Shown here piece after piece: positions 2-54,094 of a stretch of 64,000 nucleotides of DNA. How positions within the stretch are numbered: position 1 is the first letter of the stretch; each line of letters opens with the position of its first letter. The DNA lies in contig CAVUEQ010000003.1 in the NCBI GenBank assembly GCA_963740635.1, forward strand, positions 97,350-161,349, in the 5' to 3' direction. The translations under genes were made by a program, and so were the position numbers. This DNA is from an uncultured bacterium (GTDB lineage Bacteria > Patescibacteriota > Saccharimonadia > UBA4664). Under the pieces are notes generated by a model that did not search any database, was not told where the DNA came from, and was given only the letters and a program-made list of their open reading frames with translations.

Positions 2-433
2 TATCCCAGCCAGGTGGGGTACCGGCCCTACGCCGATGAGCTCGGCAGCCTGGTGTATGCCGGGTCGGATATTTTCCTGATGCCGAGCCTGTTTGAGCCG
101 AGCGGGCTGGGGCAGCTGGTGAGTTTGCGCTATGGCACAGTGCCGGTGGTGCGGCGGACCGGGGGCCTGGCCGACACCATCGCCGACTACAACCCGCGCA
201 ACCGCACCGGCAACGGGTTTGTATTCGACGAATACACGGGCGCGGCGCTGGCGGAGGCGATCTGGCGGGCGCTGGCGCTGTGGGCCGACAAGGAAAAATG
301 GTGGGACCTGATGCTTCGCAGTATGGCGCTGTCGTACTCGTGGGAGATCCCGGCCAAGAAGTACGTGCGGATTTATAAGGCCGCGATTAAGGAGAAGCAA
401 GGGGTGGCGTGGTCGATCCCGAAGCGGTGGTAG
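2..433 (+). CDS. glgA: glycogen/starch synthase (GT5), C-terminal fragment; 5' end outside the window
   Basis: The ORF is open to the left edge. The translation ..GSDIFLMPSLFEPSGLGQL..YGTVPVVRRTGGLADT.. is the conserved C-terminal region of ADP-glucose glycogen synthases. Confidence 0.85.
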   Translation, partial: YPSQVGYRPYADELGSLVYAGSDIFLMPSLFEPSGLGQLVSLRYGTVPVVRRTGGLADTIADYNPRNRTGNGFVFDEYTGAALAEAIWRALALWADKEKWWDLMLRSMALSYSWEIPAKKYVRIYKAAIKEKQGVAWSIPKRW

Positions 434-437
434 CTTC

Positions 438-1163
438 CTAGAAAGCTACTAGAGAAATGCCCGACAAGACTAAAAAGGCCATTACAATGCGCTTGAATGC
501 AACGTCATCTAGCTTCGAGTGAGCCTTTTGACCGAGCCAAACTGCTAACAGAAATCCTGGCAATACAACAAACGCGAGTGAAGCAATGTGTGCGTTGATG
601 GTACCGTTTAAGGTTAAAAGCGCAAACCTCAGGGTGTTGCCGATCCCAAGCGAACCAATGATTGTTGCCCGGATCACATTCGGCTGGCTGAGCTTGTTAT
701 AGATGTAGGTCACATAAAATGGGCTGCCACTGGAAAATAGGCCTGAAAACAACCCGGCAAAGAGTCCGAATATCCAGCCGAATTTTTGGAACTGCTTGAC
801 CTTGGCTTTGCCAATAAATTGGTGTGCCACATAAAAAAGAATGAATACGCCCAAGAGCTTGTTTAGGACAACTGGGCTGCCGTATTGCAATACCCAGACT
901 CCTATGAAGATACCGACAATACCGCCCCCGCTCAGCTCCAATACTGTTCGGCGATCCATCTCGTGCCAATGGCGGCGCGTCATGACTATGCTGAAAAGGA
1001 GCAGGTAGATTGAAATTAGTCCCACAGCTGCCTGCAGGCCAAGGAGGCGGGTGAGGATGGGTAGAGCAATGAGCGGGGCGGCGAATCCGATGACAGTTTG
1101 GACAAAGAAGCCGAGAGACAGGCTTAGAACTAATAACAGGATAGAAAGCGGCGAGAGATCCAT
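438..1163 (-). CDS. TSUP (TauE/SafE) family anion-exporter membrane protein
   Basis: 241-aa polytopic hydrophobic protein with an N-terminus typical of TauE/SafE permeases (..GFFVQTVIGFAAPLIALPIL..). Its GC is visibly lower than that of its neighbours. Confidence 0.7.
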   Translation of the reverse strand: MDLSPLSILLLVLSLSLGFFVQTVIGFAAPLIALPILTRLLGLQAAVGLISIYLLLFSIVMTRRHWHEMDRRTVLELSGGGIVGIFIGVWVLQYGSPVVLNKLLGVFILFYVAHQFIGKAKVKQFQKFGWIFGLFAGLFSGLFSSGSPFYVTYIYNKLSQPNVIRATIIGSLGIGNTLRFALLTLNGTINAHIASLAFVVLPGFLLAVWLGQKAHSKLDDVAFKRIVMAFLVLSGISLVAF

Positions 1164-1234: not shown

Positions 1235-1307
1235 GGTTACCGAAATCCGGAGAGTGCCGGATAATTTGAGCTCAATTTTTCGCGAGGTGTCCGGGTTTCG
1301 GTATAGG
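1235..1307 (+). repeat. 73-nt hairpin-forming repeat, copy 1
   Basis: 70/73 identical to 1988-2060. The ends pair as a 14-bp stem (1238-1251 with 1290-1303, one G-U). The centre holds the palindrome TTGAGCTCAA. Confidence 0.85.
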
Positions 1308-1354
1308 CTGCGGGGGGAGTTTTCTACTCGGAACATTGAAAGGGCGGGTGATTT

Positions 1355-1383
1355 TTGACAAATCTTTGTATTTATGGTACTAT
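1355..1383 (+). promoter_or_regulatory. sigma70-type promoter (TTGACA-17 nt-TACTAT) for the 118-aa ORF
   Basis: Perfect -35 at 1355-1360, 17-nt spacer, TACTAT at 1378-1383. It lies 55 nt upstream of the AGGAGG + ATG at 1439. Confidence 0.6.
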
Positions 1384-1438
1384 CTTCGTTATCCCACCGG
1401 GATTCGCCCGGTGGCCGTACCCACCAGGAGGTCCAGAA

Positions 1439-1795
1439 ATGGACGCCATACAAGTAGCTCGGATGCTGTTTGACCGACAAGTCGGCTCTAGCATCACCTT
1501 GCCACACGCCGAATTTTTTTCACTGGCGTTCGATAGGGGCGACCCCAAGTTCCCTGCCCGCCTAGCCAGTCTGATTGCCGAAATGTCCTACCAGGGCAAG
1601 GCCATCTACGCTGTCGTGGTTACGACGTACACCGAAGGTGACTACTATTCCGCTACGGCGGAGGCAGTCGCCAAGGTGACGTCGAACGAGGCGCTTGATG
1701 CGTGGCTCGAATACGCCGACGCTAGCTACGAGAACGATGGTTTTGACTACGGCTGGTACATGGCGTACTACGCCGCACCGTCTGACCTGCTCTAA
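1439..1795 (+). CDS. hypothetical protein (118 aa), no recognisable family
   Basis: ATG preceded by AGGAGG (1426-1431) with 7-nt spacing. It has its own promoter and terminator. The 146-aa track ORF (1355-1795) was trimmed to this start. Confidence 0.55.
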   Translation: MDAIQVARMLFDRQVGSSITLPHAEFFSLAFDRGDPKFPARLASLIAEMSYQGKAIYAVVVTTYTEGDYYSATAEAVAKVTSNEALDAWLEYADASYENDGFDYGWYMAYYAAPSDLL

Positions 1796-1926
1796 CCGGC
1801 TCGCGTAGCCGGACATTGCACGTAGCTCGACCTGGAGCTTGACCGCAAGACCTTGTCGCATGACCGTGAAAGACGGGCCGTTTGGGCACGAGCACGACAT
1901 TTGGCAAAACTGCACCACCTGGAATA

Positions 1927-1972
1927 CCCGGCGCCCTCGCTCTACGAGGGGACAACGCCGGGATTTTTCTTT
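1927..1972 (+). terminator. intrinsic terminator after the 118-aa ORF
   Basis: CCCGGCG (1927-1933) pairs with CGCCGGG (1956-1962) and is followed by ATTTTTCTTT. Confidence 0.6.
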
Positions 1973-1987
1973 GTGGGCGTCTGGCGG

Positions 1988-2060
1988 GGTTACCGAAATC
2001 CGGAGAGTGCCGGATAATTTGAGCTCAATTTTGCGGGAGGTGTCCGGGTTTCGGTATGGG
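1988..2060 (+). repeat. 73-nt hairpin-forming repeat, copy 2
   Basis: Direct repeat of 1235-1307. It differs by 3 substitutions, all outside the 14-bp stem. Confidence 0.85.
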
Positions 2061-2153
2061 TATACGAAGGGGGTATTCGGCAAGTAACATTAATCGAGCG
2101 CACAGACGGGCTGAGCTTATTTTGGTAAACTTGACCAGGTAACGGGTACTGTC

Positions 2154-3656
2154 GTGTTCTGGGCAACTTTACTGCATTATTACCAGCCATATAAGCAAAA
2201 ACGCGAGATAATCGATGCGATTGTGGCGCAGTGCTACCGGCCGGTGGCTGAGGGGATTTTGGCTGAGCCGGGCGCAGCGGTAACGATAAATTTTACGGGG
2301 GTGCTGCTCGACCAGCTGGCGGAATACGGGTACGGCGAGGTGATCGACATGTACGCGGAGGCGGCACGGCTGGGCCGGGTGGAATTTGTGGGCTCGAGCA
2401 AGTACCACACTACATTGGCGCTGATGGAGCCGGCGGAGGCGCTGCGGCAGTTGGAGCTCGATGACGAGGCGGGGCGGCGGCATTTTGGGAACGCGTACGA
2501 GCGGCAGGGGATTTTTTTGCCGGAGATGGCCTGGCACCCGAAGCTGGCGCCGGTGCTGGAGGCGGCCGGGTTTGAGTGGGTGATGCTGGATGAACTGGCC
2601 TGCAATGGCAAAATCGGCGCGGTGGATTATGCGTTGCGGTACAAGGTGGAGGGTACGTCGCTGGGGGTGCTGTTTCGGGAGCACCGGCTGAGCGCGACCA
2701 TTATGAGCGCCGGGCCGCGCGACACGGGTGAGCTGAAGAAGGCGGCGGGGACCGCATTGCACGAGCGGCGGATGATCGTGACGGCCATGGACGGCGAGAC
2801 GTTCGGGCACCACCGGGTGGGCCACGAGCAGCTGCTGTTTGGGATGTTCCGCGACCCGGAGATTAATCTGGTGCGGGCGAGCGATCTGCTAACGGAATTT
2901 GCCGATGCGCCGGTGGTGACCGTGCCGACGGTGGCGTGCACCTGGGCTTCTAGCGAGTATGACATTGAGCGCGGCACGCAATTTATTTCGTGGGACGACC
3001 CCGACAATGAAATCCACCGGCTGCAATGGGAGCTGATGAATTTGGTGACGAATGCGGTGCATGAGGCCGACCACAAGGCGCCCGGCTATGAGGTGGCCCG
3101 AGCTAAGCTCGATCCGGCGCTGGCCAGCGACCAATTTTTTTGGGCGACGGCCAAGCCGTGGTGGATGGTCGAGCAGATTGAATTTGGGGCCTACATGCTG
3201 CTCGACACGCTGGAGCATATGCCGGGAGTGGGCCCCGACGTAGTGCAACGGGGGCTCGACCTGTACCGGCAGATAATGTGGCTCGCCTACGAGTGGCAGC
3301 GCGGCGGCAAGGTGGACGAAATTGTGAGCTCGGGCCGGGATGACGTGGTGCGTATTCCGCTGCGTGAATGGACGCTGGAGAGCGGCGGGCGGGAGAACGT
3401 GGTTTGGCATGCGTATATGGACCTGATGCGCGGCGAGGAGAAGGCCGCCGTGAAGCGCGGGGATTATGAGGCGGCAATTTTATGGCGCGACGCGGTGTAC
3501 AAGCTCGAGCACAAGCTAGATATTTACGACGCCTGGTACGCCACTGACATGCTGAAGGCCAAGCTGCCGAACCGGCGGGTGCAGGAAACTATCGATGAAT
3601 ATAAGGCGCAATACGACCACATCCGCGGCGGGCAGGTGGAGCAGCGGTCGAATTAG
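2154..3656 (+). CDS. glycoside hydrolase family 57 protein (alpha-glucan-active enzyme)
   Basis: 500 aa. The N-terminal ..LLHYYQPY.. and ..MDGETFGHH.. motifs are typical of GH57. It lies between glgA and glgP. Confidence 0.8.
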   Translation: MFWATLLHYYQPYKQKREIIDAIVAQCYRPVAEGILAEPGAAVTINFTGVLLDQLAEYGYGEVIDMYAEAARLGRVEFVGSSKYHTTLALMEPAEALRQLELDDEAGRRHFGNAYERQGIFLPEMAWHPKLAPVLEAAGFEWVMLDELACNGKIGAVDYALRYKVEGTSLGVLFREHRLSATIMSAGPRDTGELKKAAGTALHERRMIVTAMDGETFGHHRVGHEQLLFGMFRDPEINLVRASDLLTEFADAPVVTVPTVACTWASSEYDIERGTQFISWDDPDNEIHRLQWELMNLVTNAVHEADHKAPGYEVARAKLDPALASDQFFWATAKPWWMVEQIEFGAYMLLDTLEHMPGVGPDVVQRGLDLYRQIMWLAYEWQRGGKVDEIVSSGRDDVVRIPLREWTLESGGRENVVWHAYMDLMRGEEKAAVKRGDYEAAILWRDAVYKLEHKLDIYDAWYATDMLKAKLPNRRVQETIDEYKAQYDHIRGGQVEQRSN

Positions 3657-3911
3657 TTTTTACTTGTAAAGAGTGGTCTACGGGTTTGGAAATATTCGGT
3701 TGCCCATCGCGCAGGGGTGTTCTACTATATGGAATTTGCTACCATTTTTGAGCGTAAAATTTCGCGATAATTCCTTATACTGGAACACCTCTATAGAGGG
3801 GATGTTTCGAAATATCAGCGGCGGACATGGGTAATTTGAAGTTATAAGTATGTCTCAAGGACACGTTCTACGGAATAGCATATAGTTAAGTTAGACAAGC
3901 AAAGGACCCTC

Positions 3912-12388: not shown

Positions 12389-12649
12389 TTAGTAGTGGTA
12401 TCGACAAGCGATTACGCGGACGTCGTCATCATCAACGAAGTAGACTAAACGATGCTCATCCGTAATTCTGCGTGACCAGGCGCCTGAAAGCTCGTGCCGC
12501 AGCGGTTCCGGCTTGCCGATACCGGCGAAAGGGTCGCGCTGGCAATCTTTCAGGAGCTGGTTGATTTTCTTTAAGACTTGCTTGTCGTGAGATTGCCAAT
12601 AGAGGTAATCTTCCCACCCTTCAGCGGTGAAGCTCATGGTTTTGCTCAT
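12389..12649 (-). CDS. yoeB: Txe/YoeB family toxin (mRNA interferase)
   Basis: 86 aa. ..WEDYLYWQ..DKK..KKIN.LLKD..R.PF.GIGKPEPL...LSG.WSRRI..EHRLVY.. is the YoeB pattern. It overlaps the antitoxin gene by 4 nt. Confidence 0.92.
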   Translation of the reverse strand: MSKTMSFTAEGWEDYLYWQSHDKQVLKKINQLLKDCQRDPFAGIGKPEPLRHELSGAWSRRITDEHRLVYFVDDDDVRVIACRYHY

Positions 12650-12900
12650 GATTGCTGGAGATCGTGCTTTTCTACTTTACCCGCGCGCGCGCTTTTCAGT
12701 GACCGCCGCAACCGCTCCGCGTTGGCTGGGCCGCGCAGCAAGTAGTCGGTTTCAGCATAAGAGTTGTAGGTCGCCAGCGGAAGCACCACGACGGAGACGT
12801 TATCGGAGCGGGTCACGACCAGGGGCTCTTGGTCTTGGTCGACCTCGTCAACGTACCGCTTGAGGTCTTTGCGGAAATCAGATGTGGATGCGATTTTCAT
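12646..12900 (-). CDS. yefM: Phd/YefM family antitoxin
   Basis: 84 aa. ..FRKDLKRYVDEV..DQEPLVVTR.. and the C-terminal ..TDYLLRGPANAERL match YefM. Confidence 0.9.
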   Translation of the reverse strand: MKIASTSDFRKDLKRYVDEVDQDQEPLVVTRSDNVSVVVLPLATYNSYAETDYLLRGPANAERLRRSLKSARAGKVEKHDLQQS

Positions 12901-21651: not shown

Positions 21652-21690
21652 ATTTTAGATGGTTTAGCACTCGGCCGTCAAGAGTGCTAA
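21652..21690 (-). promoter_or_regulatory. CIRCE operator overlapping the hrcA promoter; transcript probably leaderless
   Basis: Perfect TTAGCACTC-N9-GAGTGCTAA (21690-21664). The spacer contains TTGACG (21681-21676), then 18 nt, then TAAAAT (21657-21652), only 6 nt before the hrcA ATG (21645). Confidence 0.85.
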
Positions 21691-23246: not shown

Positions 23247-24803
23247 ATGGACGAGGCGGTTACCCCTAAGCAGCCGGACCCCACGCGCTGGTGGACGCTA
23301 GCGGTGGTGTGTGCCGCGATTTTTATGCTGCTGATCGATATTACGATCGTGAATGTGGCGCTGCCGGATATACAGAAGGCTTTTAACTCGAGCTTTTCGA
23401 ACCTGCAATGGGTGATAGACGCTTACGCGCTGACGCTGGCGAGCTTCGTGCTCAACGCGGGCAGCCTGGCCGACCGGTACGGGCGCCGGCTGCTGTTTCT
23501 GATAGGTGTGGGCATTTTTACCCTGGCATCGGCGCTGTGCGGGGCGGCGGTGAGCGACTTTATGCTGATCGCGATGCGGGCGCTGCAAGGCGTGGGTGCC
23601 GCGATCATGTTCGCGGTGTCGCTGGCGCTGCTGGCCAACAGCTTCCATGGCCGCGAGCGCGGGACGGCGTTTGGGATCTGGGGGGCGGTGACGGGGGCGG
23701 CGGTGGCGATCGGGCCGCTGGCCGGCGGCGCCCTGACGTCGTGGATATCGTGGCACTGGATTTTCTACATTAATGTGCCCATCGGGCTGCTGACGCTGGT
23801 GGTGGGGGCCTGGAAGGTGCGCGAATCGCGCGACCCGGGGGCGAACAAGACCGACTGGATCGGCGTCGTGACGCTGTCGGCGGCGCTGTTTTGCCTGATT
23901 TTCGCGCTGCTGCGAGGCAATAACTGGGGCTGGACGGCGGCCAAAACGCTCGGGCTGCTGAACGCGGGCGGCACGCTGACGGTGGCGTATTTGCTGAATG
24001 AGGCGCTGTCGCCGAACCGGTCGCTGCCGCTGGGCTGGTTTAGGATACCGGCGTTTACGGGTACGCAGCTGGCGGCGTTTGGGATATCGGCGTCGATATT
24101 CTCGATGTTTTTGTATCTCACGCTGTATCTGCAAAATGTGCTCGGCTTCTCGGCGATTGACGCCGGCCTGAGATTTTTGCCGACGACATTGCTGGCGTTT
24201 TTCGTGGCGCCGATTGCCGGGCGCCTGAGCGCGCGGGTGCGGCCGCAGCTGCTGATCAGCTTCGGGCTGGCGCTGATCGCGGAGTCGCTGCTGCTGATGT
24301 ACGGGCTGGGGGCCGACTCGGAATGGACCGCGCTGCTGCCGGGATTTATTTTGGCCGGCATCGGGATCGGGATGGTGAACCCGCCGCTGGCGTCGACGGC
24401 CATTTCGGTGGTGCCGGCAGCGGAATCCGGGACGGCCTCGGGGGTCAACAATACGTTCCGGCAGGTGGGAATTGCCTCTGGCATCGCTGTGCTGGGGGCG
24501 ATTTTCCAGCACCGGGTGGGCGACGAATTACGCGGGTCGCTGGGGTCGCTGCCGATACCGAAGGGCGCGCTTGACGGGCTGACAGTGGCCGTGTCGTCGG
24601 GGCGAGTCCATGAGGCTGCCCAAGCGGCGCCGGTGGCGGTGCGGGCACTGGTAGAAACCTCGTCGAAGGAGGCATTCATTGTGGCCATCAACCAGTTGTT
24701 TTTGGTGGGGGCGGCCATCGCTGGGGTGGCCGCGGTGCTGGCGTTTGTGCTCCTGCGCAAGCAACCGGCGACCGGGCAGGCGCGAGGTGCGGCCGAGGGT
24801 TAG
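23247..24803 (+). CDS. MFS transporter, DHA2 (EmrB/QacA-like, 14-TMS) family
   Basis: 518 aa. ..IVNVALP.I......S....QWV..AY.L..A......G.L.DR.GRR.. is the DHA2 signature. Confidence 0.85.
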   Translation: MDEAVTPKQPDPTRWWTLAVVCAAIFMLLIDITIVNVALPDIQKAFNSSFSNLQWVIDAYALTLASFVLNAGSLADRYGRRLLFLIGVGIFTLASALCGAAVSDFMLIAMRALQGVGAAIMFAVSLALLANSFHGRERGTAFGIWGAVTGAAVAIGPLAGGALTSWISWHWIFYINVPIGLLTLVVGAWKVRESRDPGANKTDWIGVVTLSAALFCLIFALLRGNNWGWTAAKTLGLLNAGGTLTVAYLLNEALSPNRSLPLGWFRIPAFTGTQLAAFGISASIFSMFLYLTLYLQNVLGFSAIDAGLRFLPTTLLAFFVAPIAGRLSARVRPQLLISFGLALIAESLLLMYGLGADSEWTALLPGFILAGIGIGMVNPPLASTAISVVPAAESGTASGVNNTFRQVGIASGIAVLGAIFQHRVGDELRGSLGSLPIPKGALDGLTVAVSSGRVHEAAQAAPVAVRALVETSSKEAFIVAINQLFLVGAAIAGVAAVLAFVLLRKQPATGQARGAAEG

Positions 24804-25126
24804 GGCGCGAACATCTCCTGCAGCCTGTCGAGGATGCGCACCAGGTCGCTGGGGTGGGTTTCGCCCAGCTGGCCGATAACGCGGAGTGGGCTCATTACCT
24901 GGATTTGGTCTAGCATTGCGTAGCATGTTTGTTCACGGAACTCGATGCGCAGACGCGTGGGGTATGGCCGGTCCTTAGTTGTCAGCGGCACTGCAATGAA
25001 AGTAGCCGCTTTGGTATTTGAGATATCGGGCGACACTACCACGCATGGCCTTGGCTTTTTAACTTCGCTGCCAACACCATCGAAGGTAGCCAGGTAAACC
25101 TGACCGCGTCTTATTTTTCCCACCAA
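24800..25126 (-). CDS. type II toxin, PemK/MazF family endoribonuclease
   Basis: 108 aa. ..RRGQVYLATFDGVGSEVKKPRPCVVVSPD.... is the MazF/PemK N-terminal pattern. Overlaps the antitoxin gene by 16 nt. Confidence 0.8.
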   Translation of the reverse strand: MVGKIRRGQVYLATFDGVGSEVKKPRPCVVVSPDISNTKAATFIAVPLTTKDRPYPTRLRIEFREQTCYAMLDQIQVMSPLRVIGQLGETHPSDLVRILDRLQEMFAP

Positions 25127-25410
25127 CCGTCCTCGTCTTCGAGCAATTCGGGGGCTACGTATATGCCGACCTGCCAGTCGAGTTCTTCTTGGGTCGGCTC
25201 CAAGTCGCCGCGCTCATAGGCTGCTTCCATCTGCTCGGCCCAGCCTTCGCGGGGTTTGCGATGGTTAGAGATAAGAATTTCGCCGTCGCGGGCAATGAGC
25301 TCGACCTCGTCGGCGAGGCCGGCCTGTTCGATAAGGGCTTTGGGGATACGGATGCCGCGGGAATTGCCGATCCTTGTGAGCTTAGTTGTGGTCTTGGGGC
25401 GCGTCGTCAT
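25111..25410 (-). CDS. AbrB/MazE/SpoVT family antitoxin
   Basis: 99 aa. The ..LTRIGNSRGIRIPKALIEQAGL.. swapped-hairpin motif lies upstream of the MazF-like gene. Confidence 0.8.
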   Translation of the reverse strand: MTTRPKTTTKLTRIGNSRGIRIPKALIEQAGLADEVELIARDGEILISNHRKPREGWAEQMEAAYERGDLEPTQEELDWQVGIYVAPELLEDEDGWWEK

Positions 25411-28088: not shown

Positions 28089-28972
28089 GGTTCTCTAAAC
28101 TAAAGCGGAACAAGTTCTACACTTAAGTTACGGCAATAACTTAAAGCAAGGAGACTTGTTCCAATGTATACCTTAATAAATCTGCCCCGGGATAACCAGG
28201 AGTGTGTCGAGCTGGTGGTCCGGGAAATATATCCCAATGGCCTGGTTTGCCCTTGGCAAAGCCACAAGACAATACTTGTACGGGAGAAATACCTGTGGTG
28301 CGGTACCTGCCGCCGGAAATGGAGCCTCAAGCGCAACCTGGGATTCGGGTTCTCGAAGCTGTCCTGGGTCAAGATCCTGGCCCTCGTCATCTGTTGGCAG
28401 GGCAAGCACTCTCCAGGCGACATTGTGGTGGCGACCGGCCTCAGCTACCCGACGGTGCAGCGGTGGCTGGAACGGCTCCGGTCCCGGTTGCCCCGCAGTG
28501 AGGGCGACCCATTGGCTGGCCTCCTGGAGATTGACGAGTCCTTCCTGGGTCACCAGAAATATGGCAACCAAGCTATTGTCATGGGGGTGGTCGACCGGGA
28601 AACAAACAAAGTGCGACTAGAGGTCATTCCGGATGTAGCCCAAGATACCGTTGAGGGCTTCCTTGACCGTCACGCTGAGGTCGGCAGCCTCATTCATGCT
28701 GACGCCCACGCTTCCCATCTGGGGCTCGAGGACGTCGGCTACGGACTCGTCGTCTGCAACCATGACCGGGGGCACTTCGGGCCAACCAACCGGGCCGAGA
28801 ATGTCTGGAGCTGCCTGGACCGGTTTGTCATCCGAACCCGCGACCGCTTCTTGAAGCGCTTCTTGTCCGGCATACTGCAGGAGTTTCAGGCACGGAGGAG
28901 CCACCCTGAACTATTTCGAGACCCATTCACATTACTTAAGAGTATGGCTGTTCCGGTTTAGTGGACAGAACC
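28089..28972 (+). mobile_element. complete IS1595-family insertion sequence (884 bp)
   Basis: Terminal inverted repeats GGTTCTCTAAACTAAAGCGGAACA / GGTTCTGTCCACTAAACCGGAACA (20/24 match). Flanked by the direct repeat GGTGCAGTT (28080-28088 and 28973-28981). Single transposase ORF. Confidence 0.85.
28164..28961 (+). CDS. IS1595 family transposase (zinc-ribbon + ISXO2-like DDE domain)
   Basis: 265 aa. N-terminal C..W..H...CG.C Zn-ribbon-like segment, then ..LEIDESFLG....G.......GVVDRETNKV.. typical of the ISXO2-like DDE domain. Confidence 0.8.
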   Translation: MYTLINLPRDNQECVELVVREIYPNGLVCPWQSHKTILVREKYLWCGTCRRKWSLKRNLGFGFSKLSWVKILALVICWQGKHSPGDIVVATGLSYPTVQRWLERLRSRLPRSEGDPLAGLLEIDESFLGHQKYGNQAIVMGVVDRETNKVRLEVIPDVAQDTVEGFLDRHAEVGSLIHADAHASHLGLEDVGYGLVVCNHDRGHFGPTNRAENVWSCLDRFVIRTRDRFLKRFLSGILQEFQARRSHPELFRDPFTLLKSMAVPV

Positions 28973-46384: not shown

Positions 46385-46459
46385 TGGTGGCTACGGCTAG
46401 ATTCGAACTAGCGACCAAGGGCTTATGAGTCCCCTGCTCTACCACTGAGCTACGCAGCC
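46385..46459 (-). tRNA. tRNA with anticodon CAU (elongator Met-like; Ile2 not excluded), CCA encoded
   Basis: Reverse complement GGCTGCG..CTCATAA..GTTCGAATC..CGTAGCCACCA. G1-C72 are paired, so it is not an initiator. The acceptor stem resembles E. coli tRNA-Met(m). Confidence 0.85.
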
Positions 46460-46716
46460 ATACGGGTACGAATTGTAAAAGTTTGAGGGTGAGAACGCAA
46501 CCTCCTGAAACTATTAGACCATGATTTTGCTCGTGCAGTACTTACTCGGAGGGGGCGGTGATTCTTAAATCGATGGCATAATAACATCTACAGATAGGGG
46601 TCTGTGATCTGATGTCTAGCCGGAACGCAGTCCGGATCAGTTTTGGCCGCTTATAGGCGGCTGGCGGTGGCGGCTGTTTAGGGTTTTGAGGCTAAAAAGC
46701 AGCTACACCATTATTG

Positions 46717-47352
46717 TTAGCCAATGCTCTCCCTCCGAGGGGAGGGCTCGTTTTTGAGCGAGGCCCAGAGGTGCCAGGACGCGATGGTGCGGTACGGGCG
46801 CCAGCGGTCGGCTGTGGCGATGAGCTGGGCCTTGGGCGGCAGGTCGGCCCAGCCGTAGAGGCGGCGCATGGCGTTTTGGAGGCCGACGTCGTCGGGCGCG
46901 AAGACGTCGAGGCGGACGAGGGTAAACATGAGGAACATTTGCGCCGTCCAGGTACCGACGCCCTTGATGGCGGTGAGCTCGGCGATGACCTGGTCGTCGG
47001 GGAAGGTGTCGAGATGATTGTAGACGGCGGGGTCGTGGGCGAAATGCGCGGCCAGGTCTTGGATGTAGCGGGCCTTGGCGCCGGACAGCCCGGCCGCGCG
47101 CAGCTGCTCGGGGGTAGCCGCCATGACGCGCCGCGGGTCGAGGCCGGTGAGCGCTTTGAAGCGGGCGAATATGGTGGCGGCCGCTTTCACGGATAATTGC
47201 TGGCCGGTAATCGACCGGCTCAGCGACATGAAGTAATTCGTGCGGGGTTCGTGCACGATGGGCGCTTGGAGCGCAATGATTTTGCCCAGTTTGGGGTCGA
47301 GCTTGCTTAGCTGCTGTTCGCCGGCGGCGATGCGTTTAGATAGATCGTCCAT
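46717..47352 (-). CDS. DNA-3-methyladenine glycosylase II family (HhH-GPD) protein
   Basis: 211 aa. ..SITGQQLSVKAA..IF.RF.. and ..L..IKGVGTWTAQMFLMF.L.R.DVF...D.GL.. Only the last 211 codons of the 461-aa track ORF are real. Confidence 0.8.
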   Translation of the reverse strand: MDDLSKRIAAGEQQLSKLDPKLGKIIALQAPIVHEPRTNYFMSLSRSITGQQLSVKAAATIFARFKALTGLDPRRVMAATPEQLRAAGLSGAKARYIQDLAAHFAHDPAVYNHLDTFPDDQVIAELTAIKGVGTWTAQMFLMFTLVRLDVFAPDDVGLQNAMRRLYGWADLPPKAQLIATADRWRPYRTIASWHLWASLKNEPSPRRESIG

Positions 47353-47417
47353 AAAAGTATTATAAAGACTGCGGTGGGAGACCGGCCCGCCGTGGTGGCA
47401 GGCCGGTCTCCAGCGAA

Positions 47418-48323
47418 CTAGGCCAGAACCTTGCGGAACGCCGCCTCCCACCCATTCGGCCCCCCCGGGAACTCGAGGAACCCGACGTGGGTCGACGCGA
47501 CCTCCACGAGACCGAGGTTCGGGTACACCCGGCGCCAGTGCTCGTAGGCCTCGCGTTTGATGGTGTCGTCCGCGTCGGGCGCATAGGGACGCCGGGATTG
47601 CAGGTAGTTCGCGGTAACGCCGTTCCGCTCGGGGCTGGGTTGCGGCGTGGGGTGAGCCAGAATGGAGCGTGCCTCGTCGAACAGCTGGTGGAGCGGCCAG
47701 CGACTGGCCAGTGCGTGCTGCGCGTCTAGGAGCTCCCAATTGACCCCTTCGCCGAGCAAGTCCGGTTTGGGGGGCTTGAAGGTCAACTTCCAGAACGGCC
47801 GGTTGAGCAGGAGGTCGAACAGCCGTCCGGCTGGGATGAACTTCGCTAGCTGTGCGGCCGGGTCCACGAGATCCGCAGAAGTGAAAGGGGCGTCGACCAG
47901 TTGGTTGCGAACATCCCGCCCGGGCTTGCTCATACCGAGCACGATGTCGTCGGCGGTCAGACCACCCATGGAGGCGCCGATCAGGTCGATGCGTTGGTAT
48001 TCGGTGGAGCGGAGCAGACCCCTGACCCGCTTCACGATGGACCTGCCGGTGTAACGGTTGAGGTCGTACTCCACTAGCCAGACGTCGGCGTACTCGAGCC
48101 ACACCCGAAGCATGCCGGCGGAGTGCTTGACGGCCGAACTCTGCGCCCCCGTGAGGTAGATGATGAGCCGCGAGTGATTCCGGCCGGGGCGCTTAACGAT
48201 CTCGATCTGCGGCCGCCTCATGAGGTGGAACGCGAACAGATCGATCGTGCACAGTGCAAGCATCAACAGGACCAGACCGAACAGCGATCCGATACTGATC
48301 AGTACCCATTGCCATGCGGTCAT
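47418..48323 (-). CDS. membrane-anchored alpha/beta hydrolase-like protein
   Basis: 301 aa. N-terminal TM. GxSxG elbow in ..DLIGASMGG... Confidence 0.55.
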   Translation of the reverse strand: MTAWQWVLISIGSLFGLVLLMLALCTIDLFAFHLMRRPQIEIVKRPGRNHSRLIIYLTGAQSSAVKHSAGMLRVWLEYADVWLVEYDLNRYTGRSIVKRVRGLLRSTEYQRIDLIGASMGGLTADDIVLGMSKPGRDVRNQLVDAPFTSADLVDPAAQLAKFIPAGRLFDLLLNRPFWKLTFKPPKPDLLGEGVNWELLDAQHALASRWPLHQLFDEARSILAHPTPQPSPERNGVTANYLQSRRPYAPDADDTIKREAYEHWRRVYPNLGLVEVASTHVGFLEFPGGPNGWEAAFRKVLA

Positions 48324-48544
48324 GGCCGATCATCCCCTCTCCTGGGGTCTCGTTTTTCAGGTTCAGCGGGCTAGGACTGAGGAATTATACAATTTTATTG
48401 TGCATACGTCCAGGTAAGCCTAGCTTTTTGGATTAAGCGATAAATTATATCCCTTAACAGGATGAGGCTTCACTGTGTTAAAAACAGATACTTTTGGAAT
48501 AGGTTCAGAATGTATCTAATTTTGACCGGCGACTGATAAATCCT

Positions 48545-48621
48545 TGGTAGCGGGGGCAGGATTTGAACCTGCGACCTCTGGGTTATGAGCCCAGCGAGCT
48601 ACCGAACTGCTCCACCCCGCG
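48545..48621 (-). tRNA. initiator tRNA-fMet (anticodon CAU), CCA encoded
   Basis: Reverse complement CGCGGGG..CTGGG-CTCATAA-CCCAG..CCCCGCTACCA. It has three G-C pairs closing the anticodon stem and an unpaired 1:72 position (C:U). Confidence 0.88.
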
Positions 48622-48658
48622 ATATGTACCGCACTATAATCTAACAGATTGAGGTGAA

Positions 48659-49834
48659 ATGGTCAATGACGAACCTGAGAAAAAGGTGTATGATGTTTGC
48701 CTAATTGGGAGCTTTGCGATGGGGAGAATCAAGGTTCTGGCGGGAGTATTAATAGCGCTGTTGGTCCCGGTGGCGGCAGTGGCCGCGGTGGACTCGCACG
48801 CCAACGTGGTGCTGGCCAAGGGCGATAACCGGACCGGCACTTATTATGCCGCGGGGCAGACCGTGACGGTCGATGGAGATGTGAGCGGCGACGTGGTCTG
48901 TGCGGCGCAGACCGTCACCATTAACGGCTCTGTCGGCGGCGACGTGCTGTGCGCCGGGCAGACCATCACCATTAACGGCGCGGTCGGAGGCAGCGTGCGG
49001 TCGGCCGGGCAGGTCGTAAACGTAAACGGCACCGTGGGCCGCAACGTGACGGCGGCCGGCCAGGACGTGACGGTCGGCAGCGCCTCCAAAGTGGGCGGCG
49101 ACATGGCGGCGGCGGGCGCTGGGGTGAACGTGAACGCGCCGGTGACGGGCACCCTGTACGCCGGTGGCCAGAACCTGGCGTTGAACGCTGCCGTCGGCGG
49201 CGACGTGGGCTTTTGGGGGCAGGACCTGAGCTTGGGCAATGCCGCCCAAATCGGTGGCAACCTCGTTTACACTAGCAAAAATACGTTTGCGATCGACAAG
49301 GCCAAGGTCGCTGGGACGGTGACCCGGCACGAGCCGCCGGCCACCAAGCCGGCGGCGCCGAGCGCGGCTTCGCGGCTGGCCATGCTGCTGTACTGGATAG
49401 TGGCCGGGCTGGCGACGGCGTTGGTGGCGGTGTGGCTGACGCCGCGGCTGGTGCGGGCCGTGACGGGCCCAATGCTGCGCCGGTGGCCGGCCAGCGCGGG
49501 CTGGGGCTTGGCGGTATTGCTGCTGGGGCCGGCCGTGTTCGTGGTGCTTTTGATCACGGTTATCGGCATACCGGTGGCCCTAATCGCCGGTGCGTTCTGG
49601 TTGCTGGTGCTGCTGACTTCGCAGTTGTTCGCCGGCGTGGCCGTGGGCCGGCTAATCCTGACGCGCGAAGACGACAACCGCCGCGGCATGGCGCTGGCCG
49701 CGCTGGTGGGCGTGCCGCTGGTGATGCTGGCCGTCTGGGTGCCGGTGCTCGGAGTCCTGGTGGGGCTGGCCGCGGCTATCTGGACGTTCGGCGGCGTCGT
49801 GCTGGCCATGACCCGGTCGAGCGCGCTCGGCTAG
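48659..49834 (+). CDS. bactofilin-like (polymer-forming, beta-helical repeat) protein with C-terminal multi-TM domain
   Basis: Repeats ..G.V.GDV.CAGQTVTINGSVGGDV.. followed by 4 TM helices. Alternative start at 48719 (MGRIKVLAG.., a signal-like sequence). Confidence 0.6.
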   Translation: MVNDEPEKKVYDVCLIGSFAMGRIKVLAGVLIALLVPVAAVAAVDSHANVVLAKGDNRTGTYYAAGQTVTVDGDVSGDVVCAAQTVTINGSVGGDVLCAGQTITINGAVGGSVRSAGQVVNVNGTVGRNVTAAGQDVTVGSASKVGGDMAAAGAGVNVNAPVTGTLYAGGQNLALNAAVGGDVGFWGQDLSLGNAAQIGGNLVYTSKNTFAIDKAKVAGTVTRHEPPATKPAAPSAASRLAMLLYWIVAGLATALVAVWLTPRLVRAVTGPMLRRWPASAGWGLAVLLLGPAVFVVLLITVIGIPVALIAGAFWLLVLLTSQLFAGVAVGRLILTREDDNRRGMALAALVGVPLVMLAVWVPVLGVLVGLAAAIWTFGGVVLAMTRSSALG

Positions 49835-50217
49835 TCGGCGCGCCCGCTTAAGAAATCAAACCATTGCTGGAGGTTCGAGGTTTTGGCGGCCGGGTTGGCG
49901 TTGCCCGACGCGGGCGCGGGCGCGGGGCTGGCGTGCGGGATGATCACCACATTCTCGCCCGGTAGCTGCAACCCGAGGTTGGAGCGGGCCTGGCGGTCGC
50001 GGAAAGCGTTGGTGTTGTAGTAGGCGATTGAGTCGGCGAGCTGGTTTTTTTGGTCTTGCAGCAGCGCTATTTGGACATTTAACGACTCAATTTGGCGGCC
50101 CAGCTGGTAGTTGCGCTGAATCGTCTGGGTGAGCACGATCACGAGGTAAAGGATAACCAACGCGCCGATGAGGTTGAGGAGATTTACGCCGGTCAGTTTG
50201 ATTTTTGGCAGCTTCAT
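49831..50217 (-). CDS. septum formation initiator (FtsB/DivIC family)
   Basis: 128 aa. N-terminal TM plus coiled coil (..LNVQIALLQDQKNQL..) and ..RDRQARSNLGL..PGE.V. Confidence 0.75.
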   Translation of the reverse strand: MKLPKIKLTGVNLLNLIGALVILYLVIVLTQTIQRNYQLGRQIESLNVQIALLQDQKNQLADSIAYYNTNAFRDRQARSNLGLQLPGENVVIIPHASPAPAPASGNANPAAKTSNLQQWFDFLSGRAD

Positions 50218-50232
50218 TAGCCTTAGTATAAT
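50205..50232 (+). promoter_or_regulatory. promoter of tRNA-CAU (TTGGCA-16 nt-TATAAT)
   Basis: TTGGCA 50205-50210 and TATAAT 50227-50232. The tRNA 5' end is at 50247. Confidence 0.55.
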
Positions 50233-50246
50233 ATACTAACCCCCGG

Positions 50247-50322
50247 GGGTCCGTAGCTCAGTGGTTAGAGCAGGCGGCTCATAACCGCTTGGTCGCAGGT
50301 TCAAATCCTGCCGGACCCACCA
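50247..50322 (+). tRNA. tRNA with anticodon CAU (Met elongator or lysidine-modified Ile2), CCA encoded; integration target
   Basis: GGGTCCG..GGCGG-CTCATAA-CCGCT..GGTTCAAATCC..CGGACCCACCA. 1:72 are paired. The last 44 nt are overlapped antisense by the recombinase ORF. Confidence 0.88.
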
Positions 50323-51811
50323 ATGTTGATTTATCGTCAGCGATTTGCTGAATTACCTCAAAACAAAGCCCTAATTTAGCGGTTCCAAAACCTATCCCGA
50401 AGTCATACCTAATTCCACCCGGGAAGATCATCTTTTGGAACCGGCGTTTGTATTCCGGTTCCGCATCCTCCCACATCTTCGCCAGGTTACCAATAAAGTT
50501 AGCCGCATAACCTACTATCGCATCGCGGTCCAACTCCTCCTCCCACGCCTGCCCCCGCTGCATTTGCATCGTTACTAGCTCACTATCAATCTGATCTATC
50601 ACGCGCTTATTCTTCGCTAACTGCCCGGTTTTTGCCAGGTTGCGCACGACGGTGTCCTTTTCCTCTTCAAGAACCTGCATGGACTTATCGATCTTGCGCC
50701 TAGCGTTGCGGGCATCCGCATATTCAGACTCCCATCGCTTGAGGACTGTGGCACGAAACAGTAAGAGGTCATCGTCGGTAAACTTGACGGCTTTTAGACG
50801 TTCCAGAAACTGCCGGTGAAGTGCTTCTTTATCTTCCGAGACTTGCTTGCCGGTGACGGAGCGTCGGCACTTTGGGCAGCTGTACTTGAGATACACGCCG
50901 CCGTTGCCGCGAGGTGTGCTGCCGGTGATGGGCGTAGAGCAGAGGTGGCAAACCACGAATCCACCGCGCAGAGGCCACTCACCGCCCATTTTGGTCTTGA
51001 GCAGTCCCTTGCGCGGTTTGCCGGTAAGTATGTCTTGGTTGGCCTCAAACTCGCTCATAGTTATCAGGCCAGCATGTAGGCCTTTGCGATCACCCTCAAC
51101 CAACTTGCTTCTCACGATACCGGCGTAAACACCATTTCGGAGCATGTTGCAGGTGTACTGGTACACCAGCCTTTTGCCAGACTTGTTGGTGATGCCCATC
51201 TGCCAAGCCAGCTTGTGCATCTCACGCTGCGTATAGACGCCCTTAGAGAACTCCCGGAGCCACTTTGCTACAAGTGGTCCTTTTTCGTCTGCCTCGAGCG
51301 TAGGCCGGTTCATTGCGTCTTTGACGTTGCGGTAACCAATTGGTGCCATGAAGGGCCAACTTCCCTCTTCCACCCGCTTTGCCATTCCGCCAATGGAGCG
51401 TTCGGCGCGTACCTCGTTGTCAAACTGCGCAAATCCCGACAACATTGTCTCCATCAATCTGCCAAGGGTAGTGTCTTCTATCGGCTCGGTAACCGATGCG
51501 AGGCTCACTCCTACCTTCTTGAGCACCGCTTTGATAGCATGGTGGTCTTTGGTGCGGCGAGAGAACCGATCCAGCTTCCAAACGAGCAGGGTGCTAACTT
51601 GGCCCTTGTGCTCTTGGCAATACCTGATCAGGGCGAGGAGCTGTGGCCGGTTGGCAGTTTTGGCGCTTTCGCCCTCTTCGACAAATACCTTTAGCACCTC
51701 GAGCCCGTTGGCCTCGGCATACTTCTCGCAGGCTTCGAGTTGATTCCCCAAGCTCATATTCTCGACTTGCTCGTCGGTACTGACCCTGGTGTAGATAATG
51801 GCTGTCTTCAT
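50279..51811 (-). CDS. large serine recombinase (resolvase N-domain + recombinase domain + zinc ribbon)
   Basis: 510 aa. ..AIIYTRVSTDEQ.. catalytic Ser region, ..WKLDRFSRR.., then ..C..C......G.........YY.C..C Zn-ribbon and a coiled coil. Confidence 0.9.
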   Translation of the reverse strand: MKTAIIYTRVSTDEQVENMSLGNQLEACEKYAEANGLEVLKVFVEEGESAKTANRPQLLALIRYCQEHKGQVSTLLVWKLDRFSRRTKDHHAIKAVLKKVGVSLASVTEPIEDTTLGRLMETMLSGFAQFDNEVRAERSIGGMAKRVEEGSWPFMAPIGYRNVKDAMNRPTLEADEKGPLVAKWLREFSKGVYTQREMHKLAWQMGITNKSGKRLVYQYTCNMLRNGVYAGIVRSKLVEGDRKGLHAGLITMSEFEANQDILTGKPRKGLLKTKMGGEWPLRGGFVVCHLCSTPITGSTPRGNGGVYLKYSCPKCRRSVTGKQVSEDKEALHRQFLERLKAVKFTDDDLLLFRATVLKRWESEYADARNARRKIDKSMQVLEEEKDTVVRNLAKTGQLAKNKRVIDQIDSELVTMQMQRGQAWEEELDRDAIVGYAANFIGNLAKMWEDAEPEYKRRFQKMIFPGGIRYDFGIGFGTAKLGLCFEVIQQIADDKSTLVGPAGFEPATKRL

Positions 51812-51857
51812 ATTTTGAACCTTTGAAGCCTTGATTATATGCTAACTTGTTAACATT

Positions 51858-52028
51858 TCAAGACTTCCGCCTGGACTTTTGAACCTTGAACATATCCACC
51901 ACTAGTTTGGCCAGCTGGTCTACGGCCTCGACCCGCGCACGAATCTCATCGTCGGTCATAGTCTCAGATTTGGCCCCGAGCAACTTGCGTGCCTCTGCCA
52001 CCCCGAAGTTTTGCTCGGAGTTTGCCAC
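51858..52028 (-). CDS. possible small ORF (56 aa, GTG start), unknown function
   Basis: Not in the ORF track (under 60 aa). The GTG lies 2 nt after the RHH stop. Translation MANSEQNFGVAEARKLLGAKSETMTDDEIRARVEAVDQLAKLVVDMFKVQKSRRKS. Confidence 0.3.
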   Translation of the reverse strand: MANSEQNFGVAEARKLLGAKSETMTDDEIRARVEAVDQLAKLVVDMFKVQKSRRKS

Positions 52029-52030
52029 GA

Positions 52031-52219
52031 TTACCCCTTGCGCCGGTTGCCGCGCTTACCAGTCGCGAGCTTGGCCTGCTCTGCATCTAGGTCATCAATT
52101 AGATCATTCAGTAGCTGGATCATCGACCGCCCGTCCATGGCCGCAATAATTTTCAACCGCTGGTGCTGGTTGGTGCCAATGCGCGTTAGTCTCGTTGATT
52201 CTTCGATAGTCGAGTTCAT
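52031..52219 (-). CDS. ribbon-helix-helix (CopG/Arc-like) DNA-binding protein
   Basis: 62 aa from the ATG at 52219 (GAGGGGGA upstream). ..TRLTRIGTNQHQRLKIIAAMDGRSMIQLLNDLIDDL.. fits the beta-strand/helix/helix pattern. Confidence 0.6.
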   Translation of the reverse strand: MNSTIEESTRLTRIGTNQHQRLKIIAAMDGRSMIQLLNDLIDDLDAEQAKLATGKRGNRRKG

Positions 52220-52293
52220 GGGTCCCCCTCGGGTTGGAAACAAAAGTAGCCTTCTACACAAAGGCTACACGTGCGGGAGTTCGCTAGAGTTAG

Positions 52294-52947
52294 CTAACTT
52301 TTTGTAGTGAGTGCCGGGTTCAAGCGCACCGTGTACTTGGTGACTAGCAGTAGATCCGGGGTGCCTGACAATGCTGCAACGCGGGTATTCACACTGGTGG
52401 CGGCGGTATATACCTTCCGCCAGTCCAACGCGTGTTGATCATCTTCACGTATTCCAAACTCAGCCAACATTTCGTCTGCGTTCCACGCCTCGCCCGGAGC
52501 CTTACTCGCGCCGAATAGAGCCGCCAGCAGAGCGGCCTGATTGGTATTGGGCCGAATCCTCACTTGGCCACCGTTTAAGCGCAGCACTGCACGGTCGGGT
52601 TCGTAGCTCACGCCGCCTTGAGGTAACAATAGCTGAATTGGCCGGATGTTGAGTAACTTTATCGAGTATTCTTGCCTAAACGAGAATACGGAGCCTACCG
52701 GGTTGACTCGCGTCATGAAGCCGTCTTGCTTCTCATGGTTCACTCTCACGGCCCCTTGCTGCTCTAGGTACCGCCAAAACTCCCCAATCCCTGTCTCGCT
52801 CTCCTGGTCCGGCTCGTCGGTATCCGCGTACGCCTGCACTACCACGTCCAAACCGAGCGAAGCAGCCTGGTAATTCTCTTCGTGACTGACCAAAGCGGTA
52901 GCGATGCGCGTAGTATGCTCGCTAAGGTTGGGCGTCGTAGTCTCCAT
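52294..52947 (-). CDS. hypothetical protein (217 aa); C-terminal part possibly winged-helix
   Basis: First gene of the co-directional 217 aa-RHH-56 aa-recombinase array. No family recognised. Confidence 0.45.
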   Translation of the reverse strand: METTTPNLSEHTTRIATALVSHEENYQAASLGLDVVVQAYADTDEPDQESETGIGEFWRYLEQQGAVRVNHEKQDGFMTRVNPVGSVFSFRQEYSIKLLNIRPIQLLLPQGGVSYEPDRAVLRLNGGQVRIRPNTNQAALLAALFGASKAPGEAWNADEMLAEFGIREDDQHALDWRKVYTAATSVNTRVAALSGTPDLLLVTKYTVRLNPALTTKS

Positions 52948-53268
52948 GGTGTAAACAAGTATACGCCGGGTGTGAATGGGGACACGGATCGAGACTAATG
53001 ATTGCGGGTATATGGGGCTTTTTTGTGTTACTGAATGTCATGAAATGGTTGTACAACTAACAACACGAATACGCTCAAAAAAATTATGTGTGCCCGCAGC
53101 GAGATTTGCCAACGCATATGCTCGTGACCCGGTAGTTGTGCGACGGGGGTGCACGGGGTGCAATATGACCCGGGTGTTGGCTTGGTAGTGTACACGGAAT
53201 GGATTGGGTGCCACATGTCTTCGGTGGCGGATCGGGGAGGCTCTGAGAGCGTAGGTCCGACGCGGAAG

Positions 53269-53496
53269 TTACATGCCCTTGAACAGATCCGAGATGCGCA
53301 CACCAAGCCCCTGCGCTAGTCGATCGAGTGTAGCAATTCGCGGCCAGCGTCTGCCGTTCTCTACAAATGCTATGGTCATACGGTCCAAGCCCGTCTTTTC
53401 GGCCAACTGTTCCTGGGTAATAGACCTTTCGGCCCGGAGTTGAGCAACATGCCCTCCAAATCTAGCCAAAATCTGCTTTTCGTCGTGCTGCTTCAT
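53269..53496 (-). CDS. XRE-family helix-turn-helix transcriptional regulator
   Basis: ..ITQEQLAEKTGLDRMTIAFVENGRRWPRIATLDRLAQGLGV.ISDLF. ATG at 53496 (track ORF starts at the GTG 53505). Confidence 0.85.
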   Translation of the reverse strand: MKQHDEKQILARFGGHVAQLRAERSITQEQLAEKTGLDRMTIAFVENGRRWPRIATLDRLAQGLGVRISDLFKGM

Positions 53497-53514
53497 TGCA
53501 TACACGATATTGAG

Positions 53515-53549
53515 TGTTTACAATCTGTAACATTTACAATTTGTAAACA
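53515..53549. promoter_or_regulatory. operator-like inverted repeats in the XRE divergent promoter region
   Basis: TGTTTACAA (53515-53523) and TTGTAAACA (53541-53549) are reverse complements. TTTACAA-T-TTGTAAA (53533-53547) is a 7-1-7 palindrome. Confidence 0.6.
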
Positions 53550-53569
53550 ATGTGTTATTATTCGGCCTT

Positions 53570-54082: not shown

Positions 54083-54094
54083 TAGCGCGGGGCT

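Follow-up and report, generated by a model that had tools for sequence, protein, structure and literature searches.

Two near-identical palindromic repeats around a rare small-protein gene at the glgA/GH57 junction of a Saccharimonadia genome: possible MITE-like insertions

In the glycogen cluster of a Saccharimonadia bacterium (candidate phyla radiation, CPR/Patescibacteria), two nearly identical palindromic repeats stand on either side of a single small gene, which raises the question of what the repeats are and whether they brought the gene to this place. The DNA analyzed was a 64-kb stretch of a high-GC genome, which its GH57 homologues place in the Saccharimonadia; the stretch is referred to here as the window. 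A sequence-only reading of the window had described the repeats as bracketing a cassette, and had offered a MITE-like element pair, a small mobile cassette, or a structured RNA as explanations; the first of these survived our analysis, and the other two were left unsupported. The features of the locus are as follows, with the two repeat copies named R1 and R2 and the bracketed gene named ORF118.

14-433, plus strand: 3' end of glgA, glycogen cluster
438-1163, minus strand: gene for a TauE/SafE family membrane protein (Pfam PF01925, E 3e-28)
1202-1175, minus strand: TauE promoter-like site TGGGCA-16-TATAAT, between the TauE start (1163) and R1
1235-1307, no strand assigned: repeat copy R1, 73 nt
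1355-1383, plus strand: ORF118 promoter TTGACA-17-TACTAT, from the promoter scan (10/12 with TG)
1394-1414, plus strand: hairpin CCACCGGG-attcg-CCCGGTGG in the ORF118 leader (5' UTR)
1426-1431, plus strand: Shine-Dalgarno sequence AGGAGG, ahead of the ATG at 1439
1439-1795, plus strand: ORF118, 118 amino acids, starting with the ATG at 1439
1927-1975, plus strand: intrinsic terminator of ORF118, identified by folding
1988-2060, no strand assigned: repeat copy R2, 73 nt, in the same orientation as R1 (direct)
2123-2131, plus strand: extended -10-like motif TGGTAAACT upstream of GH57, a putative element read from the sequence
2154-3656, plus strand: GH57, glycogen cluster

The repeat search of the window recovered the two direct 73-nt copies as they had been described, identical at 70 of 73 positions (96%), with start positions 753 bp apart and a longest perfect direct identity of 45 nt. 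A 38-mer of the repeat matched twice in the window, a count that was reached in 0 of 100 shuffles, and the 15-nt arm had no other convincing match there. The copies differ by three substitutions, at 1280 (T/G), 1283 (C/G), and 1305 (A/G) in R1 coordinates. All three lie outside the 14-bp stem, and the earlier statement that they avoid the stems holds for this stem. The duplication was also visible in a separate assembly (run ERR11718635), in which the Logan contig L003 begins at window position 2003, the first 31-mer unique to the second copy. Because a break at a k=31 branch point within R2 is the behavior expected of a de Bruijn assembly at a true two-copy repeat, the duplication is considered to be real.

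Each copy is built around an imperfect palindrome, whose parts in R1 are listed below.

1238-1303 in R1, and 1991-2056 in R2: imperfect palindrome of 66 nt, 76% self-complementary
1238-1251 and 1290-1303: terminal arms of R1, 14 bp each
1245-1262: competing hairpin ATCCGG-AGAGTG-CCGGAT, read from the sequence
1266-1275: central perfect palindrome TTGAGCTCAA, 10 bp, read from the sequence

The outer stem of 14 bp, TACCGAAATCCGGA/TCCGGGTTTCGGTA, contains 13 Watson-Crick pairs and one G-U pair (G-T in DNA) on the plus strand, and this single pair becomes an A-C mismatch on the minus strand. Folding and inspection of the sequence thereby agreed with the earlier description of the stem, the central palindrome, and the competing hairpin. 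The RNA minimum free energies were -29.1 and -31.8 kcal/mol on the plus strand (z of -4.1 and -4.5) and -21.3 and -21.4 kcal/mol on the minus strand, and the DNA folds of the repeats agreed with the RNA folds. All symmetry elements of R1 share one dyad axis, at 1270/1271. The repeats showed no coding capacity, since the ORFs that cross them are all spurious and extend beyond the repeat. Although one frame stays open across both copies, its tails are unrelated after a 1-nt offset, and the repeat was rejected as a coding sequence. A template/variable pair of a DGR was also rejected, on the grounds that only one of the three differences is at an A, that there is no reverse transcriptase, and that the location is intergenic.

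The position of the copies relative to transcription signals bears on whether they could act as RNA. The promoter scan and the ORF coordinates agreed with the earlier description of a complete promoter-Shine-Dalgarno-ORF unit between the copies. The intrinsic terminator, which had been noted at 1927-1972, was missed by a simple scan and was borne out at 1927-1975 by folding of positions 1796 to 1990, which showed AUUUUUCUUU after a G+C-rich stem spanning 1927-1961. The TauE promoter-like site lies between the TauE start and R1, and two divergent promoters therefore lead away from R1, one on each side. R2 follows the ORF118 terminator and precedes the -10-like motif for GH57, which has the equivalents TGCTAAACT and TGGTACACT in two related contigs (L011 and L008, respectively). 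By these predicted signals, R1 and R2 would both be untranscribed, in line with the earlier statement that they lie outside the predicted transcripts. Neither copy shows a T-run after the stem on either strand, as an intrinsic terminator would have.

A structured RNA encoded by each copy and folding as the 14-bp hairpin, as a small RNA or a cis-regulatory leader, is considered very improbable. The plus strand folds well, with z of about -4, and the lone non-Watson-Crick pair is G-U on that strand but A-C on the other, which suggests a strand preference. However, long palindromes in general fold well as RNA, and a good fold is expected of any of them. In addition, the copies are located upstream of or between predicted promoters, R2 lies past a good terminator, and the only internal promoter-like match in the repeat is weak (TTACCG-17-GATAAT, 8/12). 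The Rfam check for a known RNA family, which the sequence-only reading had proposed, gave no repeat match at the gathering score over the window (four tRNAs only) or at E ≤ 10 over positions 1100 to 2250, and the repeat has no homologues and so no covariation.

We examined the glgA/GH57 junction in related genomes. In four relatives (L004/5, L006/7, L008, and L016), whose glgA C-terminus is 86% identical and whose GH57 is 70 to 74% identical to those of the window, GH57 directly follows glgA with gaps of 15 to 51 nt. In a fifth relative (L014; GH57 75% identical), GH57 occurs without glgA upstream. Because glgA abuts GH57 in the four relatives, the segment at 434-2153 is not the common state, and the synteny comparison supports the earlier claim that the ORF118 unit together with the TauE gene separates glgA from GH57, and shows the segment to be lineage-specific. 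The TauE gene itself is lineage-specific at this site and had rightly been described as lower in GC: its GC is 0.49 and its GC3 0.57, compared with a GC3 of 0.8 to 0.87 for core genes and 0.70 for ORF118. Its nearest protein relatives are 61 to 65% identical and come from contigs of much lower GC (e.g., L012, 39% GC). With a gene of foreign composition here and an uninterrupted junction in four relatives, the glgA/GH57 junction of the window appears to be an insertion-tolerant site.

The history of ORF118 at this junction was informative about the repeats. A word-indexed search with ORF118 found only the protein itself, and an exhaustive HMMER search was needed to find homologues. P0138, with 121 amino acids, is 53% identical to ORF118 (E 3e-25), and P0140 is 32% identical, in a cluster that also holds a 148-amino-acid version, P0141. 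The family thus amounts to four sequences among about 15 billion and is a very rare family of small proteins. A 943-amino-acid repeat protein (P0139) was rejected as a homologue because its match looks like compositional similarity. Searches of Pfam, NCBIfam, PHROGs, PADLOC, and PDB sequences for the function of ORF118 all returned no match, and its AlphaFold model (pLDDT 67) gave only weak Foldseek matches, with E about 1e-3 and TM 0.4 to 0.5, to the little-finger fold of Y-family polymerases; no function was read from them. The earlier statement that ORF118 belongs to no recognizable family therefore stands with regard to curated families, but not with regard to homologues (P0138 at 53% and P0140/P0141 at 32%).

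The gene for P0138, on the more distant Saccharimonadia contig L011, sits between glgA and GH57, at the same junction as in the window. Nucleotide alignment showed that promoter, leader, Shine-Dalgarno sequence, ORF, and terminator are all homologous between L011 and the window. The L011 promoter counterpart, TTGACA-17-TAGGAT, starts 6 nt past the glgA stop. Conservation also covers the leader, CAGGAGGTCCAG-N-AATGGAC, and the terminator, in the form CCCCG-CGCCCTCGC...GCGAGGGG...CGCCGGGG-T-run. L011 has no TauE gene, and neither the covariance model described below nor blastn found the repeat in it; its gaps beside glgA and the GH57 promoter are too short to hide a decayed copy. Since the unit is present in L011 without repeats, the repeats did not bring the unit to the junction, and the earlier definition of the cassette by its repeats does not hold. 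Being absent from the L011 unit and from all other sequences searched, the repeats are late, lineage-private additions flanking a resident gene. L011 is farther from the window (glgA 79.5%, GH57 57% identical) than the relatives that lack the ORF118 unit, and the simplest history would be that the unit is old and resident and was lost in one sister clade, with lateral transfer to the same site also conceivable. The third family member, on contig L013, is monocistronic with its own promoter and terminator and lies between recJ and priA.

These observations also bear on the possibility that R1 and R2 serve as sites for site-specific recombination in direct repeat (resembling attC, res, or att), with the ORF118 unit as a cassette that could be excised or integrated. 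Direct repeats around exactly one self-contained unit are the expected trace of a circular cassette entering its cognate site, palindromic arms are found in recombinase core sites, and the window carries a large serine recombinase gene at 50279-51811. Nevertheless, the reading is improbable, given that L011 has a homologous unit at this junction and no repeat. The attL and attR sites of serine integrases are hybrids with nothing but a central dinucleotide in common, not full palindromes with 96% identity, and R1 and R2 do not resemble them. The serine recombinase gene is 48 kb away, next to its own tRNA-Met site, and no other cassette with this site was found in the collections searched. The attC core motifs RYYYAAC and GTTRRRY were absent from both copies and were nowhere paired in positions 1100 to 2250 (regular-expression search, both strands), and no integron integrase or tyrosine recombinase was among the Pfam families listed for the window ORFs. 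There is no third cassette site, because only 4 nt separate glgA from the TauE gene. A more specific version, in which the repeats are the recombination sites of a cassette system of CPR bacteria whose integrase acts in trans and the ORF118 unit is excised or captured between them, would explain the patchy presence of the unit at the glgA/GH57 junction; we regard it as hardly credible.

Further copies of the repeat were searched for at several levels. A covariance model was built from R1 and R2 with the 14-bp stem and was run with filters off, following a check that had been suggested by the sequence-only reading. In the 64-kb window, it recovered only R1 and R2 (next match, 14 bits, E 0.45), and its sole match among 12 related loci was the truncated R2 on L003. 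A scan for the pattern TACCGAAANCCGG-N25-55-CCGGNTTTCGGTA, needed an exact match at 24 stem positions. Of its four matches, two came from the 185,579 representative genomes (Blastococcus and Provencibacterium) and two were JGI metagenome contigs, and every one is an unrelated perfect palindrome. Viral contigs matched neither the stem pattern nor the central 23-mer, and blastn of the repeat with its tail against phage and plasmid records gave no match. Neither the half-sites nor the central palindrome occurred in excess, whether across the window or ahead of homologous genes in relatives. Because no relative with the locus carries any version of the repeat, there is no stem-preserving variation. 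With no further copies in the sequences searched and no such variation, an outcome that the sequence-only reading had itself named as a refutation, neither a structured-RNA family nor a mobile-cassette family is sustained. For REP sequences associated with RAYT, the test gave no GTAG at either end, only two copies in 64 kb, and no Y1_Tnp among the Pfam families listed (25 of 31 in one batch). Altogether, the repeats are not REP sequences, attC sites, intrinsic terminators, or members of any Rfam family.

The edges of the repeats were compared between the two copies. The left flanks of R1 and R2 showed no similarity. The right flanks (1308-1337 and 2062-2092) matched at 19 of 30 positions in register, which was reached in 12 of 5,000 shuffles in an anchored test with the length chosen post hoc, and the similarity was not significant in local, unanchored alignment. 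An extension of the repeat into the right flank is unproven, and the repeat unit was taken as sharply bounded. Short direct repeats were found at both copies as follows.

1234-1236 and 1305-1307, at R1: AGG, 3-nt direct repeat, candidate target-site duplication
1987-1989 and 2058-2060, at R2: GGG, 3-nt direct repeat, candidate target-site duplication

In context, R1 reads GCT AGG T-palindrome-T AGG CTG, and R2 reads GCG GGG T-palindrome-T GGG TAT. The 3-nt repeats are perfect and in the same register at both copies, and the A/G difference in the right flanks (1305/2058) is mirrored in left flanks that are otherwise unrelated. Random pairs of sites match as the AGG and GGG flanks do 0.7% of the time, a value from tests that are not independent, as GG is shared by both copies. 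Because GG is common to both copies on both sides, the real significance of the flanking repeats is nearer to 0.01 to 0.05. The flanks are therefore suggestive of target-site duplications but are not proof of them. In addition, the 9-mer GGCGGGGTT, which in L008 lies between glgA and the GH57 promoter, stops in the window precisely where the R2 palindrome starts. This position is consistent with an insertion of R2 into ancestral spacer DNA.

The explanation that we favor, with a probability of roughly 0.45, is that one non-coding palindromic element of 66 to 68 nt, MITE-like (or REP-like), bearing 14-bp terminal inverted repeats, and acting at the DNA level, inserted twice to give R1 and R2. 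The grounds for favoring a MITE-like element are the sharp boundaries, the 14-bp terminal inverted repeats, and the 3-nt direct repeat flanking each copy. The insertions would be recent and confined to this lineage, and their targets would have been the intergenic gaps before and after the resident ORF118 at the glgA/GH57 junction. The element may have been moved in trans by a transposase acting on the terminal inverted repeats, and, if it was transposed, AGG and GGG would be its 3-bp target duplications. The copies would probably have no dedicated host function. As a side effect, their 45 nt of perfect direct identity could permit homologous deletion of the ORF118 unit. Several observations count against a MITE-like element. 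There are just two copies, 753 bp apart, co-oriented and neatly bracketing one gene, a pattern not predicted by random transposition, and no further copy was found in the rest of the window, in the 12 related loci, or, by scans exact at 24 stem positions, in large collections. The flanking-repeat evidence is statistically weak, and the window has no partner IS with matching ends, as described below.

In an alternative reading, the repeats are a locally duplicated palindrome to which a dimeric or tetrameric protein binds as double-stranded DNA (as operator, insulator, or looping site), with the copies kept alike by selection or gene conversion and controlling the TauE, ORF118, and GH57-glgP promoters. 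The single dyad axis at 1270/1271 and the perfect, even-length center of 10 bp are typical of protein-bound DNA rather than of an RNA hairpin loop, and the palindrome centers would be about 100 to 120 bp upstream of three predicted transcription starts. If the 19/30 likeness of the right flanks reflected real homology, the core (70/73) would be far better conserved than the flank; this likeness is, however, not significant unanchored. The inserted segment contains no regulator gene, and no similar palindrome or half-site was found upstream of the homologous genes in L004-L016 or at the TauE locus of L012, nor elsewhere in the window. Moreover, at 66 bp and with arms 38 bp apart, the site would be unusually large. 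A binding palindrome is an unlikely account of the pair.

For a MITE-like element, the window was examined for an insertion sequence with matching ends. It contains a single IS, of the IS1595 family, as follows.

28089-28972, no strand assigned: IS1595-family IS
28164-28961, no strand assigned: its transposase
28089-28112 and 28949-28972, no strand assigned: its 24-nt inverted repeats

This IS is flanked by a 9-bp duplication, GGTGCAGTT. Its ends matched the repeat at 8 of 11 positions at the left end only and at 2 to 4 of 11 at the right end. Derivation of the repeat from this IS was rejected because of the one-ended similarity, the failure of the other end, and the 9-bp duplication. No partner transposase with ends matching the repeat was found in the 64-kb window.

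If the MITE-like reading is true, the repeats slightly extend the short list of mobile DNA known from the reduced genomes of CPR/Saccharimonadia, and they show that insertions are tolerated at the glgA/GH57 junction. Of more use is the bracketed ORF118 itself, a member of a rare family in a unit conserved at a glycogen-cluster junction. Conservation of the whole unit at the same junction in a distant relative makes ORF118 a candidate accessory of glycogen metabolism. Only a demonstration that the repeats are excised, bound by protein, or transcribed would change current understanding.

Among known systems, operators of the CIRCE type resemble the repeats in being palindromes upstream of promoters. 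CIRCE has a 9-N9-9 structure, is conserved across phyla, and lies at the promoter or leader of chaperone operons, whereas the repeat palindrome has 66 nt, is confined to this genome, and precedes promoters by about 100 bp. The window also carries a genuine CIRCE, at 21664-21690. The attC sites of integron gene cassettes share with the repeats an imperfect palindrome of the 57- to 141-nt class lying in the same orientation beside a single ORF. In contrast to attC, the repeats lack the R''/R' core motifs, and their stem has no extrahelical bases. Unlike an integron cassette, the ORF118 unit has its own promoter and terminator, comes without an integron integrase, and exists elsewhere without the sites. 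REP/BIME sequences, which are mobilized by RAYT Y1 transposases, are likewise imperfect intergenic palindromes acting at the DNA level; the repeats differ from them in having no GTAG head, a low copy number, and no Y1 transposase among the Pfam families listed. Finally, bacterial MITEs and small palindromic elements (Correia/NEMIS, RUP, and ERIC) differ from the repeats in that the latter form two adjacent copies, with no autonomous partner IS with matching ends in the window, are at the small end of the size range (66 to 68 nt), and belong to a family otherwise absent from the databases searched. MITEs occur as multiple dispersed copies, and their ends are shared with an autonomous IS; in the 64-kb window, the only two copies lie within 0.8 kb of each other, and no IS shares their ends. 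Because copy number and partner IS both fail on the available sequence, we call the repeats MITE-like and assign them to no named family. The resemblance to these elements nevertheless extends to a length below 200 nt without coding capacity, terminal inverted repeats, an intergenic location, near-identical copies, short flanking direct repeats, and a hairpin that can fold on either strand.

The small-protein family of ORF118, the 118-aa ORF between glgA and the GH57 gene, is very rare, with 4 sequences among about 15 billion. Every member is encoded in a monocistronic unit with a promoter, leader, and terminator of its own, and three such units were delimited.

Window, 1338-1975: ORF118 unit
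L011 (a more distant Saccharimonadia contig), 1786-2466: ORF118-family unit
L013 (contig of the third family member), 1760-2500: ORF118-family unit

The window and L011 share the location of the unit, which is the glgA/GH57 junction. The leader and Shine-Dalgarno sequence of the unit are conserved at the nucleotide level, and the 3' untranslated region is structured and long (177 to 224 nt). The structure model of ORF118 had a pLDDT of 67.

The neighboring TauE/SafE gene (within 434-1234) was probably acquired horizontally. It shows a foreign composition, with a GC content of 0.49 and a GC3 of 0.57, and its closest homologues (61 to 65%) come from low-GC Patescibacteria contigs. The gene is convergent with glgA, with 4 nt between the two stop codons; a TATAAT promoter-like site is present, and the start of the gene is almost leaderless.

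Gene order in the glycogen cluster was also compared with that of relatives. The GH57-glgP spacer of the window (3657-3911) is 255 nt long with 41% GC; at the same position, the opposite strand of three relatives in which glgA directly abuts GH57 (L004, L006, and L008) contains HAD-hydrolase and APH-type kinase genes, and these genes are lost from the window. In L014, among the closest GH57 relatives (75% identity), two unrelated genes without a Pfam match (1-1400) lie upstream of GH57 in place of glgA. Because the GH57 gene of L014 is not preceded by glgA, the glgA/GH57 linkage is variable within the group of GH57 relatives.

Elsewhere in the window, the segment from 50247 to 57750 looks like an element integrated at a tRNA-Met(CAT) gene. 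The 3' end of a large serine recombinase gene overlaps this tRNA gene, and a lower-GC block (0.52 to 0.58) of mostly ORFs of unknown function follows the recombinase gene. The tRNA gene is one of three with a CAT anticodon within 4 kb (46385-50322), presumably of the initiator, elongator, and tRNA-Ile2 types.

46385-46459, minus strand: tRNA (CAT)
48545-48621, minus strand: tRNA (CAT)
50247-50322, plus strand: tRNA-Met(CAT)
50279-51811, minus strand: large serine recombinase gene (Resolvase N-terminal domain, E = 4e-37)

The window also contains a compact insertion sequence of the IS1595 family, which has terminal inverted repeats of 24 nt (83% complementary) and is flanked by the 9-bp direct repeat GGTGCAGTT.

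28089-28972: IS1595-family insertion sequence
28164-28961: its transposase (PF12762, E = 4e-12)

Type II toxin-antitoxin pairs are also present. MazF/PemK-MazE lies at 24800-25410. YoeB and Phd/YefM matches were found among the ORFs at 5.5 to 21.6 kb; we infer that they correspond to two neighboring ORFs of 86 and 84 aa (12389-12900). The ORFs at 42.2 to 63.9 kb include a further MazE-like antitoxin as well as a PIN domain and HTH proteins.

Immediately upstream of a minus-strand gene starting at 21645 lies a perfect CIRCE operator, adjoined by a separate palindrome.

21664-21690: CIRCE operator, TTAGCACTC-N9-GAGTGCTAA
21739-21778: AT-rich palindrome, 40 nt

This gene is the first of a block whose Pfam matches include HrcA, GrpE, Hsp70, and DnaJ.
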